DNA of 36,511 bases from a bacterium (GCA_030648495.1 JAUSHV010000004.1:1-36511); one strand, 5' to 3'; positions 1 to 21,996 are shown, numbered from the stretch's first letter. Translations and numbers: made by a program. Notes: generated by a model from the letters alone, not told the origin.

Positions 1-333
1 AAAAGCGTCTAAAAATATAAATACGTATCCGTACCTAAAACCGACACAGGTGGGTGAGTCGAGTAGACTCAGGTGAACGAGTGAGAGATCCTCAAGGAAC
101 TCGGCAAAAAAGCATTCGTAAGTTCGCAATATGAATTACCCCGATGACAATATAGCAATATATCGGACCTCGGGGTCGCAGCTAAAGTATGCTTGGCGAC
201 TGTTTATCAAAAACACAGCTCCCTGCAAACACGTAAGTGGAAGTATAGGGGGTGACTCCTGACCAATGCGAGAAGGTTAACGCTGGTGTTTCAATGTAGC
301 AATATGTTGGGGTGACCGGCCGAAGCCCTCGTC

Positions 334-1074
<741 letters not shown>

Positions 1075-1737
1075 GCGCAATTCCTTGTCAGGTGAGTTCT
1101 GACGCGCACGAAAGGAGCAACGACTGAGCAACTGTCTCGAGGATTCGCTCGGTGAAAATGCGATACCGGTGAAGATGCCGGTTAGGCACAGATAGACGAA
1201 AAGACCCCAGAAGCTTTACTGCAAGTTGTTATTGGCTTTACGTTTTTACTACGTAGCGTAGTGGTGAGGATTTGAAGTGTCGCTCTCGGGTGGCATGGAT
1301 CCGACGATGAAACAGCCATTTTTAAAGATGTAAAATCTAACCTGTTGAGATTAAACTCAATGGGGACAGTAGCTGCCGGGCAGTTTGTGTGGGGCGCAAT
1401 CCTCCTAAAAAGTAACGGAGGAGTTTATTAAGGTCAGCTAGGCGCGGATGGACATCGCGCTAGTCGTGTAATAGCAAAAGCTGGCTTAACTGCAAGACGG
1501 GCATGTCGCGCAGTTGCGAAAGCAGAATATAGTGAACCGACCGTAGGCACTCGATGCCGCGGAAGATTAACGGATAAAAGCTACTCTGGGGATAACAGGC
1601 TAGTTCCGTCCAAGAGTCCATATCGACGACGGAGTTCGGCACCTCGATGTCGGCTCAACTTATCCTGGGGGTGGAGAAGCTCCCAAGGGTTTGGCTGTTC
1701 GCCAATTAAAAAGTTACGTGAGCTGGGTTCAAACCGT

Positions 1738-2176
1738 TCAGAATCTAAAAAGATTTGGGTTTTGAACATGTTTGAATCCCGAGGTATAGAAAACGACATA
1801 TCACGGCGACCCTTATTAGTGATAATAAGGTGTATTAATCGACTTATATCGGTGAAGTCCATTTGTGGTAGACCAAGCCACATGTTAGGATAATACCGAG
1901 GGAAGTTTTAATTAATTTTTATGGAACAAGAAAAAATGCCTTTTTCAGAGGCAGATGAGATATTAAAAAGAGTTGAGCGAGAAACGCGATTAAAGTGGCT
2001 AGAATCGCAGGTATCATTATCTCCCGACGAACTCGAAGAATTTAATGATCTCAAAAAAGAATTAAGCGAGCCTGAAAATAAAGATTAATAACACCCGTAG
2101 AGACTGAACGTCGATACTCTCTAAATTTTAGAGAATAAGTTACAGTCCAATGCACGCAGTAATGCGTGGAAACATG
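1738..2176 (+). mobile_element. Group-I-like intron 2 in 23S rRNA (about E. coli position 2593, the I-CreI-type site), without an endonuclease gene
   Basis: The exon ends at gggttcaaaccgT (1737) and resumes at cgtgagacagg (2177). The 5' exon ends in U and the intron ends in G (2176). P7-like strings are agactga (2101-2107) and tacagtcc (2141-2148). Confidence 0.75.
1921..2088 (+). CDS. Small acidic 55-aa ORF inside intron 2 (MEQEKMPFSEADEILKRVERETRLKWLESQVSLSPDELEEFNDLKKELSEPENKD), hypothetical
   Basis: I translated this by hand; it falls below the ORF-track cutoff. It occupies the position where a homing endonuclease ORF would normally sit. There is only a weak purine-rich stretch upstream (gagggaag ~1897). 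The composition is helical and charged, with no recognisable family. Confidence 0.3.
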   Translation: MEQEKMPFSEADEILKRVERETRLKWLESQVSLSPDELEEFNDLKKELSEPENKD

Positions 2177-2239
2177 CGTGAGACAGGTTGGTCTCCTATC
2201 TACTGTGCCCGTTGATTTTTGAGGGGAGTTCTCCCTAGT

Positions 2240-3042
2240 AAATTTTGCTACTTCAGAGAGTAATCTCTGATGACAATTTGGCTAATAACGGTGGAACCTT
2301 CATAAATTTTCTGGTTGTATTTATCCACAGCCCATAGGTCCGGGGTGTGGTATCATGAAGTTACTTGAGGACCAGAAAATTTTTAAGGCAATACCGTGGG
2401 AAGTCGATCTAAAACTAAAAAGAACAAATTAAATTACGCTTACATTGCCGGATTTCTAGATGGCGATGGAAGTTTAATGCTGCAGATTAAAAAACGCAGC
2501 GATTCAAAAAAAGGTTGGCGATTTATGTCCACTATCTGTTTTTATCAGGATAGCAGGCACGATACGCCGCTTTCATGGATTCGTAAGCGTTTGGGAATTG
2601 GATATTTGTCCAGGCGAAACGATGGAATGACGGAATTGCGGATAAATGGTTATCAGCAAGTTCACGGAATTCTTAAAGTTTTGTTTCCATTTATTCAATT
2701 CAAGAAAAATCAGGCAGAAGCGCTTTTGAAAGCATCGGCTCTGCTTGCTAAAAAATCTTTAGTTGAGTTTTCGCTTGAAGAACGGCAGAAATTATTAGAT
2801 TGGATTTTAATTATTCAATCAAACAATTATGCCAGCCGGACGAAAACGACTAAAGAAACTTTGCAGAAAGTTTTAGATTTGACCCCGTAACGACTTGTGT
2901 CCCGCCATTTGGCGCGGACCGGACTCATATAAATTGGAAAGCCGTGCAATTTGCCGGCAGGTTTATATGGGTAATACGCCGACACCCGAAATATATCGGG
3001 TGAAGATATAGTCTGTGCTCCTAGAAATAGGGGGTATACATG
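2240..3042 (+). mobile_element. Group-I-like intron 3 in 23S rRNA, inserted within the sarcin-ricin loop sequence, carrying a homing endonuclease ORF
   Basis: The exon reads ...ctccctagT (2239) and resumes at acgagaggaccgg (3043). The 5' exon ends in U and the intron ends in G (3042). The P7/P3-like string gaagatatagtctg is at 3002-3015. Confidence 0.8.
2396..2890 (+). CDS. LAGLIDADG homing endonuclease (single-motif, ~164 aa), GTG start
   Basis: The ORF lies inside intron 3 and has the motif LNYAYIAGFLDGDGSLMLQI. Confidence 0.9.
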   Translation: MGSRSKTKKNKLNYAYIAGFLDGDGSLMLQIKKRSDSKKGWRFMSTICFYQDSRHDTPLSWIRKRLGIGYLSRRNDGMTELRINGYQQVHGILKVLFPFIQFKKNQAEALLKASALLAKKSLVEFSLEERQKLLDWILIIQSNNYASRTKTTKETLQKVLDLTP

Positions 3043-3122
3043 ACGAGAGGACCGGGAGGAGTTGACCTCTGGTCTACGAGCTCTGCCGCCAGGTGGATCG
3101 CTCGGTAGCTATGTCGATAAGT

Positions 3123-3153
<31 letters not shown>

Positions 3154-3324
3154 ACGCCCCAAGATTAGAAATCGTTATCAGACTCGTGGAAGATGACCAC
3201 GTTGATAGGCTCTAGGTGTAAGCATCGTAAGGTGTTCAGCCGAGGAGTACTAATGTTCGAATTGCTTTTTACGCGGCCGTTTTGTTAGAAAATGTGCTTA
3301 CGAATTAATATTTAAAAAGACGAA

Positions 3325-3353
3325 TTGACCTCTAATTAGAAAGGATGTAGTAT
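3325..3353 (+). promoter_or_regulatory. Sigma70-like promoter TTGACC-N17-TAGTAT, placed 6 nt upstream of the ATG at 3360 (leaderless geometry)
   Basis: ttgacc at 3325-3330, a 17-nt spacer, tagtat at 3348-3353, then ttattt and the ATG. Confidence 0.55.
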
Positions 3354-3359
3354 TTATTT

Positions 3360-3578
3360 ATGAGTGAACAAACACATACACCAGAATTTGATGAGGGAAC
3401 TGTCGAAATAATAAAAAACGCTATGGACGCTCTTAAAACCTTAGAGGCTGCTGCTGAAGCGGGAGATTTAGTAGAGGAACAAAGAAGTGCTATAAAAGAA
3501 TCTCTGAATGGTTTTTTTAAAGCTGTGCGCGAGTCAGGATTTTATATTGAGAGAATACATGGTTCAGAGAAAAAGTAA
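3360..3578 (+). CDS. Hypothetical 72-aa acidic helical protein encoded in the 23S-5S spacer
   Basis: A clean ORF with its own promoter-like element immediately upstream and no overlap with conserved rRNA sequence. No family is recognisable. Confidence 0.5.
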   Translation: MSEQTHTPEFDEGTVEIIKNAMDALKTLEAAAEAGDLVEEQRSAIKESLNGFFKAVRESGFYIERIHGSEKK

Positions 3579-3600
3579 AAAATAATTAAATTTTTTCATT

Positions 3601-3705
3601 CGGTGGTTTGAGGCGACGGCACTACCTCTTCCCATCCCGAACAGAGTCGTAAAACGTCGTACTACCGATGATACTCCGAAAGGGGGAAAGTAGGTAACCG
3701 CCGGT
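3601..3705 (+). rRNA. rrf: 5S rRNA
   Basis: The conserved core cccatcccgaacagagtcgtaaaacgtcgtactaccgatgatact...gtaggtaaccgcc is present. The 5' cggtggtt pairs with the 3' aaccgccg. Ends are accurate to about 5 nt. Confidence 0.85.
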
Positions 3706-3724
3706 TGAAAGGATTTAATTTAAT

Positions 3725-4742: not shown

Positions 4743-5033
4743 GTCGGATACTCTCCCCAAGCGGGGTTCCACGGCTGCGAGCTACATGCTCGTCCATAAC
4801 GAAGCTTGGGATTTGAAAACCGCGGACTCGCCGGGCGCCGTCGAAGATACGCGCCGGGCCAGTCCTGACGCAATGGCGAAGGGGGCGCAAATTCAAAAGG
4901 TTTCCTGGGGCCTTTGATTTTTCTGGGGACCTGCACCCCCTTCGCCCAAGTTTTTTTTAAAGCCCTTAAATGGGAAGTCCTTTGAACCATAGAGTTCAAC
5001 AGGGCGGACTCGACTTCGGTCGGGTTTTTTTTT
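4743..5033 (+). ncRNA. Candidate structured RNA 2 (~290 nt), identity unknown; possibly related to RNA 1
   Basis: It has the same promoter module as RNA 1. An analogous long-range helix pairs ggcgaagggggcgca (4875-4889) with tgcacccccttcgcc (4932-4946) and is followed by T8. A second hairpin actcgac-ttcg-gtcgggt with T9 lies at 5008-5033. A further hairpin is gccgggcgc...gcgccgggc. No RBS or plausible ORF is present. Confidence 0.55.
5008..5033 (+). terminator. Rho-independent terminator (UUCG-tetraloop hairpin plus T9)
   Basis: actcgac ttcg gtcgggt followed by ttttttttt. Confidence 0.8.
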
Positions 5034-18621: not shown

Positions 18622-20052
18622 ATGGAATGGCAAATTACAGTTGGGCTTGAGGTTCACGCGGAGCTTCGGACAAATACGAAGATGTTTTGCGGTTGCAAAA
18701 ATGACCCAGACGAAAAACATCCCAACATAAATATTTGTCCCGTTTGCATGGGACACCCCGGGACTTTGCCTGTCGCAAACGAGGCGGCGATAAAGCATGT
18801 GCAAAGAGTCGGGCTCGCTTTGGGCAGTGAATTACAAAAAACTTCGCATTTCGACCGCAAAAATTATTTTTATCCGGATATTCCAAAGGGATACCAGATC
18901 TCGCAATATAAAGACCCGCTTGTTTTGGGAGGGGCGTTGAAAGGCGTGAAAATTACACGAGTGCATTTGGAAGAGGATACCGCAAGGTCGCAGCATAATA
19001 CAAAAAATAAAGTGAGCTATGTTGATTTTAACAGGGCAGGCGTGCCATTGATGGAGCTTGTCACCGAACCGGATATTACGAGCGCAAAGCAAGCGCGGGA
19101 ATTCGCGGAGGAACTGCAATTGGTTTTTCAATATCTGGGCGCTTCTGAAGCAAATATGGAAAAAGGGGAGATGCGTTGCGAGGCAAACATTTCGGTTTAT
19201 CAAGATTCGGATCGTCTCTCAGGCACTAAAGTTGAAGTAAAAAATCTCAACTCGTTCCGTTCAGTTGAAAAAGCAATAGAATTTGAATTTGAAAGACAAG
19301 TAAAGTTATTGGAAGAAGGCGGCAAAGTGAAGCAAGAGACAAGGGGGTGGGATGAAAATAAGGAAGTAACTTTCTCGCAGCGCTCAAAGGAATCGGCGCA
19401 CGATTACCGCTATTTTCCGGAGCCGGATTTACCCCCGATGGAGTTTAGTGAAGAATATTTTGATGAGCTTCGTACAACGATTCCCGAATTGCCGGAAGCC
19501 AAAAGGAATCGTTTTATTGATGAGTATAAATTGGACGCTGTGGCAGCGGAAATTTTAATGAATGATAAAGATTTGTCGGCTTTTTGGGAGAAGATGGCTT
19601 CGGAGGTGAGGGAATGGGATTCGGATAAATATCCGGAGTCTATTAAATTGGCTTCGAATTATTTTACCTCCGATCTTTTGGGTTTGATGAAAGAAAAAGA
19701 AATCCCAGCTTCTGAATTATTAATTGACCCGGAAAATTTTGCGGAATTGATTAAAATGATTGTGAAAAAAGAAATTACCTCGCGCGTGGCCAAAGATGTT
19801 TTAAGGCATATGGTTGAAGAGGGAGGGGATCCGTCAAACTGGGTAGAAAAATTGGGCCTCGCACAAGTGAGCGATACGGGCGCGCTGGAGGCGATAGCTA
19901 AAAAAATAATTGGTGCAAATCCTAAGGCAATTGAGGATTATAAAAAAGGCAAAGCCAACGCTGTTCAATTTCTCGTCGGCCAAATGATGAAAGAAACCAG
20001 AGGCGCGGCAAATCCGGACACAATCAAAGAGATATTGACAAAGTTGATATAG
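18622..20052 (+). CDS. gatB: Asp-tRNA(Asn)/Glu-tRNA(Gln) amidotransferase subunit B
   Basis: VGLEVHAELRTNTKMFCGC...CPVCMGHPGTLP...NRAGVPLMELVTEPD; the C-terminal YqeY-like tail reads GKANAVQFLVGQMMKETRGAANP. Confidence 0.95.
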   Translation: MEWQITVGLEVHAELRTNTKMFCGCKNDPDEKHPNINICPVCMGHPGTLPVANEAAIKHVQRVGLALGSELQKTSHFDRKNYFYPDIPKGYQISQYKDPLVLGGALKGVKITRVHLEEDTARSQHNTKNKVSYVDFNRAGVPLMELVTEPDITSAKQAREFAEELQLVFQYLGASEANMEKGEMRCEANISVYQDSDRLSGTKVEVKNLNSFRSVEKAIEFEFERQVKLLEEGGKVKQETRGWDENKEVTFSQRSKESAHDYRYFPEPDLPPMEFSEEYFDELRTTIPELPEAKRNRFIDEYKLDAVAAEILMNDKDLSAFWEKMASEVREWDSDKYPESIKLASNYFTSDLLGLMKEKEIPASELLIDPENFAELIKMIVKKEITSRVAKDVLRHMVEEGGDPSNWVEKLGLAQVSDTGALEAIAKKIIGANPKAIEDYKKGKANAVQFLVGQMMKETRGAANPDTIKEILTKLI

Positions 20053-20800: not shown

Positions 20801-20914
20801 ATGGCGATAACCTTGAAAAGGAAAAAACCAAGAAAGTTTAAGAGATTGATTGAGGCGGCCGGAAGGTATAAAAAAATATTAGATCAGCAAAAAAAATTGA
20901 GCAAGAAAAAATAA
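20801..20914 (+). CDS. Possible 37-aa highly basic peptide (MAITLKRKKPRKFKRLIEAAGRYKKILDQQKKLSKKK)
   Basis: Translated by hand; below the ORF-track cutoff. aaaggagagggt lies directly before the ATG. Confidence is low. Confidence 0.25.
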   Translation: MAITLKRKKPRKFKRLIEAAGRYKKILDQQKKLSKKK

Positions 20915-20922
20915 GCATTATT

Positions 20923-21996
20923 TTATGAGGAGATCCAGCGGATCTCCTTGTTTTTTTTGAACCAGGTCATTTGCCGCTTGGCATAGTGCCAAGTCGCGAT
21001 TTCAAGTTCGCAGATAAATTCTTTTTTCGTAAGTTTTTTTTGTAGATAGAGCGAAGAGTAGCGGTATTCAAGGCCCAGCTCAAAAAGGCGTTTCCAGGAA
21101 ACTCCGTCTCGGTGAAGTTTTTTTACTTCGCGGATTATTCTCGGAAGTCTCGCAAGCAGTCTTTTGTGAATCCGTTTTTTTAATTCTTCGGGTGGGCGTT
21201 TGATTCCTAGCCAAATAATTTTCTTCGGAGAAACTAATGCACCCTCTTCACTCATTCTCGCTCCGCCAGCGCGGAGCTCCGAGGGTTCCGCTCGTTTTTG
21301 CCCCTTCGTCCGCCAGTCGGCGGACTCGTGGACCGTGCCAAAAACGGCGGAAAACCCGTTCAGAGGGTCATTGGTTTCTCCTTTGCCAAGCGAATCATCT
21401 TCTTGGAGAAAACCTTGCGCAGCGCGACGGCGCGAGCAGAGCAATTCGTCAGTAGACGAATATGCGTGTTTTCGTAAAGAAGCATGATTCGCTGTGGCTA
21501 TCTCAATCGCTCGGATTAGCCGCCGAGGATTTTTTTGTTCGACGGTTTTCGCGCGTTCCGGGTCAAGTTTCTTGAGTGTTGTGAGAAGTTTCGCGGTTGA
21601 GTAGTTTTCGAGTTTTCGGCGAAGCGCATGATTGGGCGGTACTCCGCCCAATTTTACGCGCCCGAGCGCCGCATCAATATAAAATCCAGTCCCACCAACA
21701 ATAATCGGCGTTTTGCCGCGCGATAATATGTCCGCGATTGCTTTTTCTGCACAATTTTTAAAATCGATGGCGGAGAAAGCTTTTTTTGGATTGGCAATGC
21801 TTAAGCAATGATGCGGAACTCCCCGCATTTCTTTTTTTGTGATTTTTCCGGAGCCGATGTCGAGCCTTTTATATACTTGCCGCGAATCAGCCGAAATAAT
21901 TTCGCCATTAACTTTTTTTGCTATCTTTACCCCAAAATCCGATTTTCCACTCGCATTCGGCCCGACTATTACAATTATTTTTGATTTTTTGCGCAT
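20923..21996 (-). CDS. miaA: tRNA dimethylallyltransferase, carrying a ~70-aa in-frame insertion
   Basis: The P-loop is IVGPNASGKS. Other strings are ISADSRQVYKRLDIGSGKITKKEMRGVPHH, NPRRLIRAIEIA and YAKRQMTWFKK. For the insertion see the findings. Confidence 0.9.
   Translation of the reverse strand: MRKKSKIIVIVGPNASGKSDFGVKIAKKVNGEIISADSRQVYKRLDIGSGKITKKEMRGVPHHCLSIANPKKAFSAIDFKNCAEKAIADILSRGKTPIIVGGTGFYIDAALGRVKLGGVPPNHALRRKLENYSTAKLLTTLKKLDPERAKTVEQKNPRRLIRAIEIATANHASLRKHAYSSTDELLCSRRRAAQGFLQEDDSLGKGETNDPLNGFSAVFGTVHESADWRTKGQKRAEPSELRAGGARMSEEGALVSPKKIIWLGIKRPPEELKKRIHKRLLARLPRIIREVKKLHRDGVSWKRLFELGLEYRYSSLYLQKKLTKKEFICELEIATWHYAKRQMTWFKKNKEIRWISS

Follow-up and report, generated by a model that had tools for sequence, protein, structure and literature searches.

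How does MiaA, an essential tRNA-modification enzyme, come to carry a long, hairpin-rich segment in a bacterium with a sub-megabase genome, and what is that segment? The gene (tRNA dimethylallyltransferase) lies at 20923-21996 on the minus strand of the window, that is, the whole stretch of 36,511 nucleotides analyzed here, from a Giovannonibacteria-like genome of 823,655 bp (0.82 Mb; G000) whose nearest named relatives are Candidatus Giovannonibacteria. Its 357-aa product matches Pfam IPPT (PF01715; 6.7e-57, 193 bits) in two stretches, one on each side of the insert, possesses the P-loop N-terminus, and matches the MiaA structures 2qgn, 3d3q, and 2zm5 in the PDB. In the 2qgn alignment, query residues 4-171 and 252-355 correspond to chain residues 2-173 and 184-287. 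The two blocks are contiguous in solved structures and, therefore, ~80 residues are extra at one site, as an earlier note on this DNA had proposed; distant relatives have ~20 residues in this loop.

That note had also described the inserted DNA as GC-rich, open in several frames, and dense in hairpins, all of which was borne out. GC content in 100-nt windows reaches 0.59–0.66 at 21250-21399, compared to 0.43 for the genome, and ORFs are present on the plus strand at 21200-21487 and 21237-21455. The hairpins GUCCGCC-GACU-GGCGGAC and CUCCGC-GCUG-GCGGAG are both part of the minimum-energy fold. The folding energy of 21200-21490 on the miaA sense strand is -129.7 kcal/mol versus -93.4 ± 5.1 for shuffles (z = -7.10), and the opposite strand gives a near-identical value (z = -7.09). 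AlphaFold2, supplied with an alignment of 13 orthologues, returned a confident MiaA fold in which most 10-residue blocks have a pLDDT of 80–94. The only long low-confidence stretch in the model is residues 173-252 (codons at 21241-21480, minus strand), a coil with block means of pLDDT ~24–36 between a helix (157-172) and a strand (260-266). The model thus predicts a normal fold for the MiaA core and a disordered loop for the insert. We take this site to be the one at which, in MiaA-tRNA complexes, the MiaA chain leaves the helical tRNA-clamping domain and re-enters the core.

Two dispersed repeats within miaA

A BLASTN search of the insert against its own 823,655-bp genome recovered further copies, and iterated nhmmer searches then separated two adjacent, dispersed palindromic repeats, referred to here as elements A and B. 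The earlier proposal of a small, structured, MITE-like mobile insertion carried as a surface loop was therefore essentially right, except that there are two elements and not one.

Element B (~158 nt, 21224-21381, minus strand; nhmmer) is a palindromic multi-helix repeat read in its usual frame. In miaA it encodes GETNDPLNGF...ARMSEEGALVSP, and its orientation and frame match those of the copy in uvrC. Three copies of B are present in the genome, namely the one in miaA, a complete one in uvrC (C13:11465-11645), and an incomplete one on C33. At the tip of B is an apical hairpin, gtccgcc-agtc-ggcggac on the plus strand (21308-21325), which among aligned B copies occurs only in the miaA copies of G000 and G002 (alignment columns 98-109). 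This hairpin holds the 9-mer GCGGACTCG, on which the earlier note had partly based a kinship between the insert and an ncRNA block at 4-5 kb. The 9-mer does occur at 4822, 5004, and 21320, but the kinship did not hold up, as the contexts are unrelated and share nothing else; it has four occurrences genome-wide, that at 5004 being a terminator stem. At the start of the window, within 1-3706, a partial 23S rRNA match spreads 1313 model positions over 1912 bases, with ~600 nt extra, and 453-941 is an open frame. Beyond this partial match, ~1.7 kb separate it from the 5S gene, with an ORF at 2396-2890 in between.

A 6-nt junction (21382-21387), delimited by the ends of the B match and of the A covariance-model match, separates B from element A. 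The A copy (~105 nt, 21388-21491, plus strand, and hence antisense to miaA) is a three-way-junction palindromic repeat, detected with nhmmer (E = 1.2e-19) and with covariance model R1 (91.3 bits, E = 4.4e-22). Its core (21408-21478) is conserved, and its outer arms are a variant shared with the miaA copy of a relative, G004. Element A has a length of ~105 nt, equal to 35 codons, and the consensus TGCCGAAGGCACAAGTTTTGCAAGACCTTGCGCAGCGCGACGGCGCGAGCAGAGCAATTCnnCAGCAGnnGAATATGCGTGTCCTTGCAAAATCTGGTGCCGAGG. Beyond the miaA insert, the A and B models match nothing else on the window's contig.

Host genes, reading frame, and folding

Element A has 16 copies in the 0.82-Mb genome, 12 of which are within long open frames of 187–1084 aa (the 187-aa frame ends at a contig end) that extend tens to hundreds of codons on either side of the copy. 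These 12 in-gene copies are all in sense orientation and in a single codon phase (phase 1), encoding the peptide ...PKAQVLQDLAQRDGASRAIxQQxNMRVLAKxGAEA. A thirteenth, degenerate copy (C43) again has the NMRVL frame. A head-to-head pair of copies on C42 (14775-15046) falls in a frame of 167 aa, which is short and probably no real gene, and the comEC copy is located at C42:33511. Stop codons do not account for the single phase of A, because most copies are open in other sense frames. Hosts of A identified with Pfam include UvrC, MurB, methylpurine-DNA glycosylase (MPG), ComEC, a class-V aminotransferase (Aminotran_5), two GT1 glycosyltransferases, a PMT_2 glycosyltransferase, and a ComF-like protein, and another, read from the sequence and its KMSKS motif, is a 1084-aa class-I synthetase. 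Sense copies of A in one phase thus occupy at least 12 different host genes. Near-identical PMT_2-type segments with an A insert are found on C25:1-86 and C63:8407-8511, one of which stops at a contig end within the repeat; strain heterogeneity, or a break in the assembly at element A, may explain this duplication.

Relatives give a similar picture for sense copies. Of 20 A copies from other genera, six are sense in long frames, all in phase 1, and five are antisense inside long frames, with more than one phase used; the A copies of G008 and G009 are mostly outside long frames. The A copy of G010 sits at the same position as the G000 copy in the KMSKS synthetase. In G001, a relative from the same genus as G000, gatB (L013 2860-3010) has an in-frame sense A copy (PTAQVLQDLAQTDVASRAIPQQRDMRVLTKPGAEA). 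The window's gatB (18622-20052) is without A and has a short unrelated stretch at the corresponding position.

All copies of element A fold as one three-way junction, composed of a long outer stem and two hairpins. Across 17 copies, 88.6% of cells are paired, versus 78.0% in shuffled alignments and at most 57% in slid controls; 19 pairs changed on both sides, and none of 500 shuffles attained the observed values. In the central hairpin of A, every pair is Watson-Crick, and a single position may show as many as three pair types. For B, 13 copies from six genera support 34 pairs with 96.3% of cells paired (shuffled 81.8%, slid at most 51%), 19 of them covarying (0 of 500 shuffles), and invariant unpaired blocks (AA.CCTCGGAG, CGCTGG, and CGAGAATGAG) lie between the stems. 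Both elements have terminal inverted arms, those of A pairing over ~20 bp and the outer stem of B comprising nine pairs. No target-site duplication was visible at the ends of aligned copies, and the filled and empty gatB pair is too diverged to resolve one. Pfam contains no family for the peptides encoded by A and B.

We considered strand-specific selection on RNA and rejected it, since G-U and A-C counts showed no clear asymmetry. G-U pairs make up ~1% of cells in B and, outside one invariant U-G, G-U and A-C are balanced in A (24 vs 16). With G-U rare or balanced, pairing in A and B is equally good on both strands, and a DNA-level hairpin fits better than a strand-specific RNA. This bears on the suggestion that the insert is removed from the transcript, either as a compact intron (a self-splicing one in the earlier note) or as an intervening sequence excised at a hairpin. 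Although the fold is very stable (z = -7.1) and the 23S rRNA gene on the same contig is ~600 nt longer than the matched model region, we regard removal at the RNA level as highly improbable. Every in-gene copy preserves the frame of its host, and 18 of 18 sense A copies share one phase with the other frames mostly open; such a constraint speaks against excision, because an excised element would feel none. Rfam 15 gave no match at the gathering threshold for the insert in a scan of the window and none at E <= 1 for any of the element copies scanned (L001, L006, and L007), group I and II introns and ribozymes included. Furthermore, two unrelated elements are involved, one of them antisense to the gene, both are found inverted in relatives, and pairing is almost purely Watson-Crick on both strands. 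The self-splicing proposal was accordingly abandoned.

The MiaA loop in relatives and its evolutionary signature

The variable region of MiaA lies between 'RRLIRAIEI' and 'WLGIKRPPEEL'. It has ~20 residues in two genomes from other families (G036 and G025) and ~25 in G012, and the short form predominates, with most Paceibacteria MiaA matches being ~830–860 nt long. Element A is present in sense orientation in G004, with the same variant outer arms as the window copy in the opposite orientation, and in G001, together with another segment. B occupies the loop in G011 and G009, is inverted with a complementary open frame in G008, and may be recognized in G003 as a remnant resembling inverted B. 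A different segment (KKRHFVDFAGF...EESKINK) is found in G005, G015, and G019. The combination of antisense A and B is common to G000 and G002 (Ca. Giovannonibacteria RIFCSPHIGHO2_02_FULL_44_11), the latter with an intact miaA. Judged from these sequences, the MiaA loop is a hotspot for A, B, or other segments in either orientation.

Other parts of miaA also vary. Relatives (G004 and G019; G002 and G012) have further small, in-frame hairpin inserts elsewhere in the gene, one of which is KASLSSRRGGITAKAV around ATCCCGCCGTGGCGGGAT, similar to the central hairpin of element A, and another NPPSGGG around CCGCCATCTGGCGG. The MiaA match in G010, G022, G026, and G028 is in three pieces, with ~40–60 to ~120 nt extra after residue ~56, which suggests a second insertion-prone site near the N-terminus. 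In the window's miaA, a separate perfect 9-4-9 hairpin, ATTGGGCGG-TACT-CCGCCCAAT (21631-21652), located in a conserved portion of the gene, encodes KLGGVPPN. Over the stretch around it (aa 106-120), G000 and G002 share 97.8% identity, with third positions 93% identical against a background of ~45%, and the residues at the hairpin differ in other families (G036 and G025).

Across the family, the covariance model detected A in 14 of 20 genomes (0–24 copies each), and B was found in 10 of 20, with 1–6 copies in relatives. Elsewhere in the phylum, A was found in 4 of 300 sampled genomes, all belonging to the same class. Within this sampling, A and B are restricted to Giovannonibacteria-like Paceibacteria.

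Two independent public groundwater assemblies provide contigs that span the junctions, with X1 covering 20900-21441 and X2 covering 21418-21627, neither with a mismatch. Depth over the A core (21418-21454) spikes ~30-fold (X1) to 150-fold (X3) in such assemblies, and X1 contigs break in the A core at 21441. Assemblies break at repeats of this kind, and the X1 break could be read as a sign that the insert is itself a chimera assembled at a repeat. We give this reading almost no credence, since the X1 and X2 contigs match exactly, G002 has the same antisense A and B in an intact miaA, and G011 and G009 share the B junction. In a related population (X5), 39 other letters replace 21387-21482. In the two public samples closest to the window, a search for an empty site at strain level gave no highly identical joint.

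Comparison of G000 and G002 revealed contrasting modes of evolution in the gene and in its insert. The flanks differ by 27/9/78 and 17/5/40 at codon positions 1/2/3, with 96 synonymous versus 40 non-synonymous codon differences; this is normal purifying selection, and miaA is therefore functional. For the insert, the corresponding figures are 11/12/3 and 2 synonymous versus 18 non-synonymous codons, which is unlike a loop under selection as protein, a check on codon positions that had been named beforehand. Third-position identity is 93–100% over residues 181-255, compared to ~40–55% along the gene, and third positions of B are still 75–100% identical to those of G011, which belongs to a different genus. 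Overall, G000 and G002 share 97% identity over B in miaA, and identity to G011 is 85%. The A hairpin, orthologous in G000 and G002, differs between them by a compensatory change from GTC/GAC to GCC/GGC, and in G002 the arms of A show decay.

These patterns leave virtually no room for a common protein loop, specific to the lineage, that arose at this site through selection on the protein. In favor of that explanation, the insert is in frame and MiaA has a variable loop here throughout the family, but the occurrence of the same DNA in unrelated genes already refutes it, and both the codon-position differences (11/12/3; 2 synonymous vs 18 non-synonymous) and the predicted disorder run against it. 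The lineage-specific disordered loop put forward in the earlier note thus describes the outcome for the protein (pLDDT < 50, coil) and fails as an account of its origin, because the insert is without codon-position conservation. Long 'lineage-specific insertions' in the proteins of these bacteria should be interpreted with caution, as they may be repeat DNA and not evolved domains.

Intragenomic gene conversion was rejected as the cause of B conservation. The other B copies in G000 and G002 are merely 70–72% identical to the miaA copy, and neither genome has a near-identical donor. The conservation could instead reflect selection for the nucleic acid as such, or a recent recombination event confined to the element. 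Conservation of B beyond the synonymous sites of its host is not what a purely selfish, decaying passenger would predict, and it raises the question of a function for the DNA or RNA structure.

Spread and persistence of the elements, and known repeat systems

We consider it probable (roughly 80%) that the insert consists of two juxtaposed, hairpin-forming dispersed repeats that are in frame, read through, and tolerated as a surface loop. A and B would both have landed in the hinge loop of MiaA, which leads from the last helix of the helical domain to the next core strand. Their frame and phase suggest that the ribosome reads through both elements and that the resulting peptide is tolerated at the protein surface. 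Patchy copy numbers, different host genes, and the use of either orientation at one site point to spread as DNA, and selection may act on the DNA hairpin itself.

An alternative that shares this origin and differs on why the insert persists is that A, and especially B, is a functional nucleic-acid module embedded in the gene and kept for its DNA or RNA structure, with the peptide as a by-product. Such a module might bind a protein, serve as a recombination site, influence mRNA stability, pause translation, or be a substrate of RAYT-like enzymes. It would fit the identity of B in miaA (97% between G000 and G002, 85% with G011) where third positions in the flanks are saturated, the invariant single-stranded blocks between covarying stems, the lack of a donor copy for gene conversion, and the compensatory GTC/GAC to GCC/GGC change in A. 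However, A and B each occur both ways round in the miaA genes of relatives, which speaks against a fixed role at the mRNA level, the close relatives G001 and G003 are without B at this site, and the arms of A are decaying in G002. On balance, we think a functional module of this kind unlikely. A bolder version, which we offer tentatively as a possibility worth keeping in mind, is that A and B are selected hairpin cassettes with invariant loops, copied, replaced, or inverted at fixed addresses by a RAYT-like or other hairpin-specific system. This would explain the conservation beyond synonymous sites, the orientation flips, and the stacking of two elements in one loop; if true, the loops of essential proteins would be written and rewritten by a DNA-hairpin system.

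Enzymes of a candidate class are encoded in the genome. Six Y1/HUH ORFs (RAYT/IS200-type; 211–253 aa) have intact HUH and tyrosine motifs, at C13:9699-10388, C63:4392-5048, C8:9757-10404, C55:3767-4402, C54:4787-5437, and C42:19688-20449. Five of the six are above the Pfam cut-off; RAYT (TnpA-REP) HUH tyrosine transposases belong to family PF01797. Four of the six genes have 25-nt hairpins (CACTTGG-stem-loop-stem-CCAAGTG) with covarying inner stems on either side; a hairpin-specific enzyme class is therefore present in the genome. Dispersed CACTTGG hairpins also occur in frame, encoding 'LGVQDAK' within MPG and one of the RAYT genes, and 'DLVVGQPSG' within the aminotransferase gene. Y1/HUH ORFs were found in 19 of 20 family genomes, with 1–9 each. 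A direct role of the RAYT genes as mobilizers of A and B was nonetheless rejected. Searches with nhmmer using the A and B models gave no match in 400-nt flanks of all six Y1 genes, and neither Y1 counts nor C13-type orthologues correlated with A copy number among family genomes, so that no paralogue tracks the abundance of A. By analogy, RAYT-type HUH transposases as a class are still candidates for spreading A and B.

REP or REPIN sequences together with their RAYT, termed 'REPtrons', are known from Proteobacteria, where classical REPs are extragenic. The genome described here resembles these systems in having six Y1/HUH ORFs, four of them bracketed by hairpins, and repeats that are hairpins conserved in structure. 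However, A and B are 4–6 times longer than REPs, are without the CACTTGG motif, and lie inside genes; moreover, they flank no RAYT gene, and their copy number shows no co-variation with any RAYT paralogue.

Several bacterial MITEs, including ERIC, BOX, Correia, Nezha, and others, have been described as making in-frame fusions (PMC10969869). Like these, A and B are small and non-autonomous, with terminal inverted arms and a patchy copy number among relatives. Unlike MITEs, aligned copies of A and B show no target-site duplication, searches next to the Y1 genes gave no parental insertion sequence with the same ends, and an intragenic, frame-preserving location is the rule and not the exception. 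PARCELs are similar in that they are coding sequences with dyad symmetry, spread among genes and translated, but they consist of tandem 25-residue repeats in surface proteins whose function is not known, whereas A and B are single insertions in conserved enzymes.

The likeness is most extensive to the Rickettsia palindromic elements (RPEs), described as ~150-bp repeats located in frame in unrelated genes, each with a conserved peptide (Ogata et al. 2000 Science 290:347 and Ogata et al. 2002, both summarized in PMC10969869). Such in-frame 'coding palindromes' have been regarded as a near peculiarity of Rickettsia (PMC10969869). Similarly, A and B are ~100–150 bp long, have dyad symmetry, and reside in frame in housekeeping genes of a reduced genome. 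They also encode a conserved peptide in one frame, and RPEs are thought to be tolerated where the protein fold permits (PMC10969869). The likeness is one of behavior; we do not claim membership of A or B in RPE-1 to RPE-10, and the phylum is a different one, Patescibacteria. In contrast to RPEs, A and B are read in frame in both orientations at the same site, they fold into junctions of several helices in which unpaired blocks are invariant, the miaA copy of B is more conserved than synonymous sites, and part of the A and B family is intergenic.

A full-text literature search combining palindromic, MITE, and RAYT terms with CPR or Patescibacteria returned no description of such elements in these bacteria. 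The results here extend RPE-like behavior to Patescibacteria, with at least two unrelated element families in an essential tRNA-modification enzyme, and illustrate one way in which gene-dense, sub-megabase genomes host repeats, namely in permissive protein loops. The novel features are that two families are stacked in one loop, that orientation flips at a single site, and that conservation extends beyond synonymous sites.
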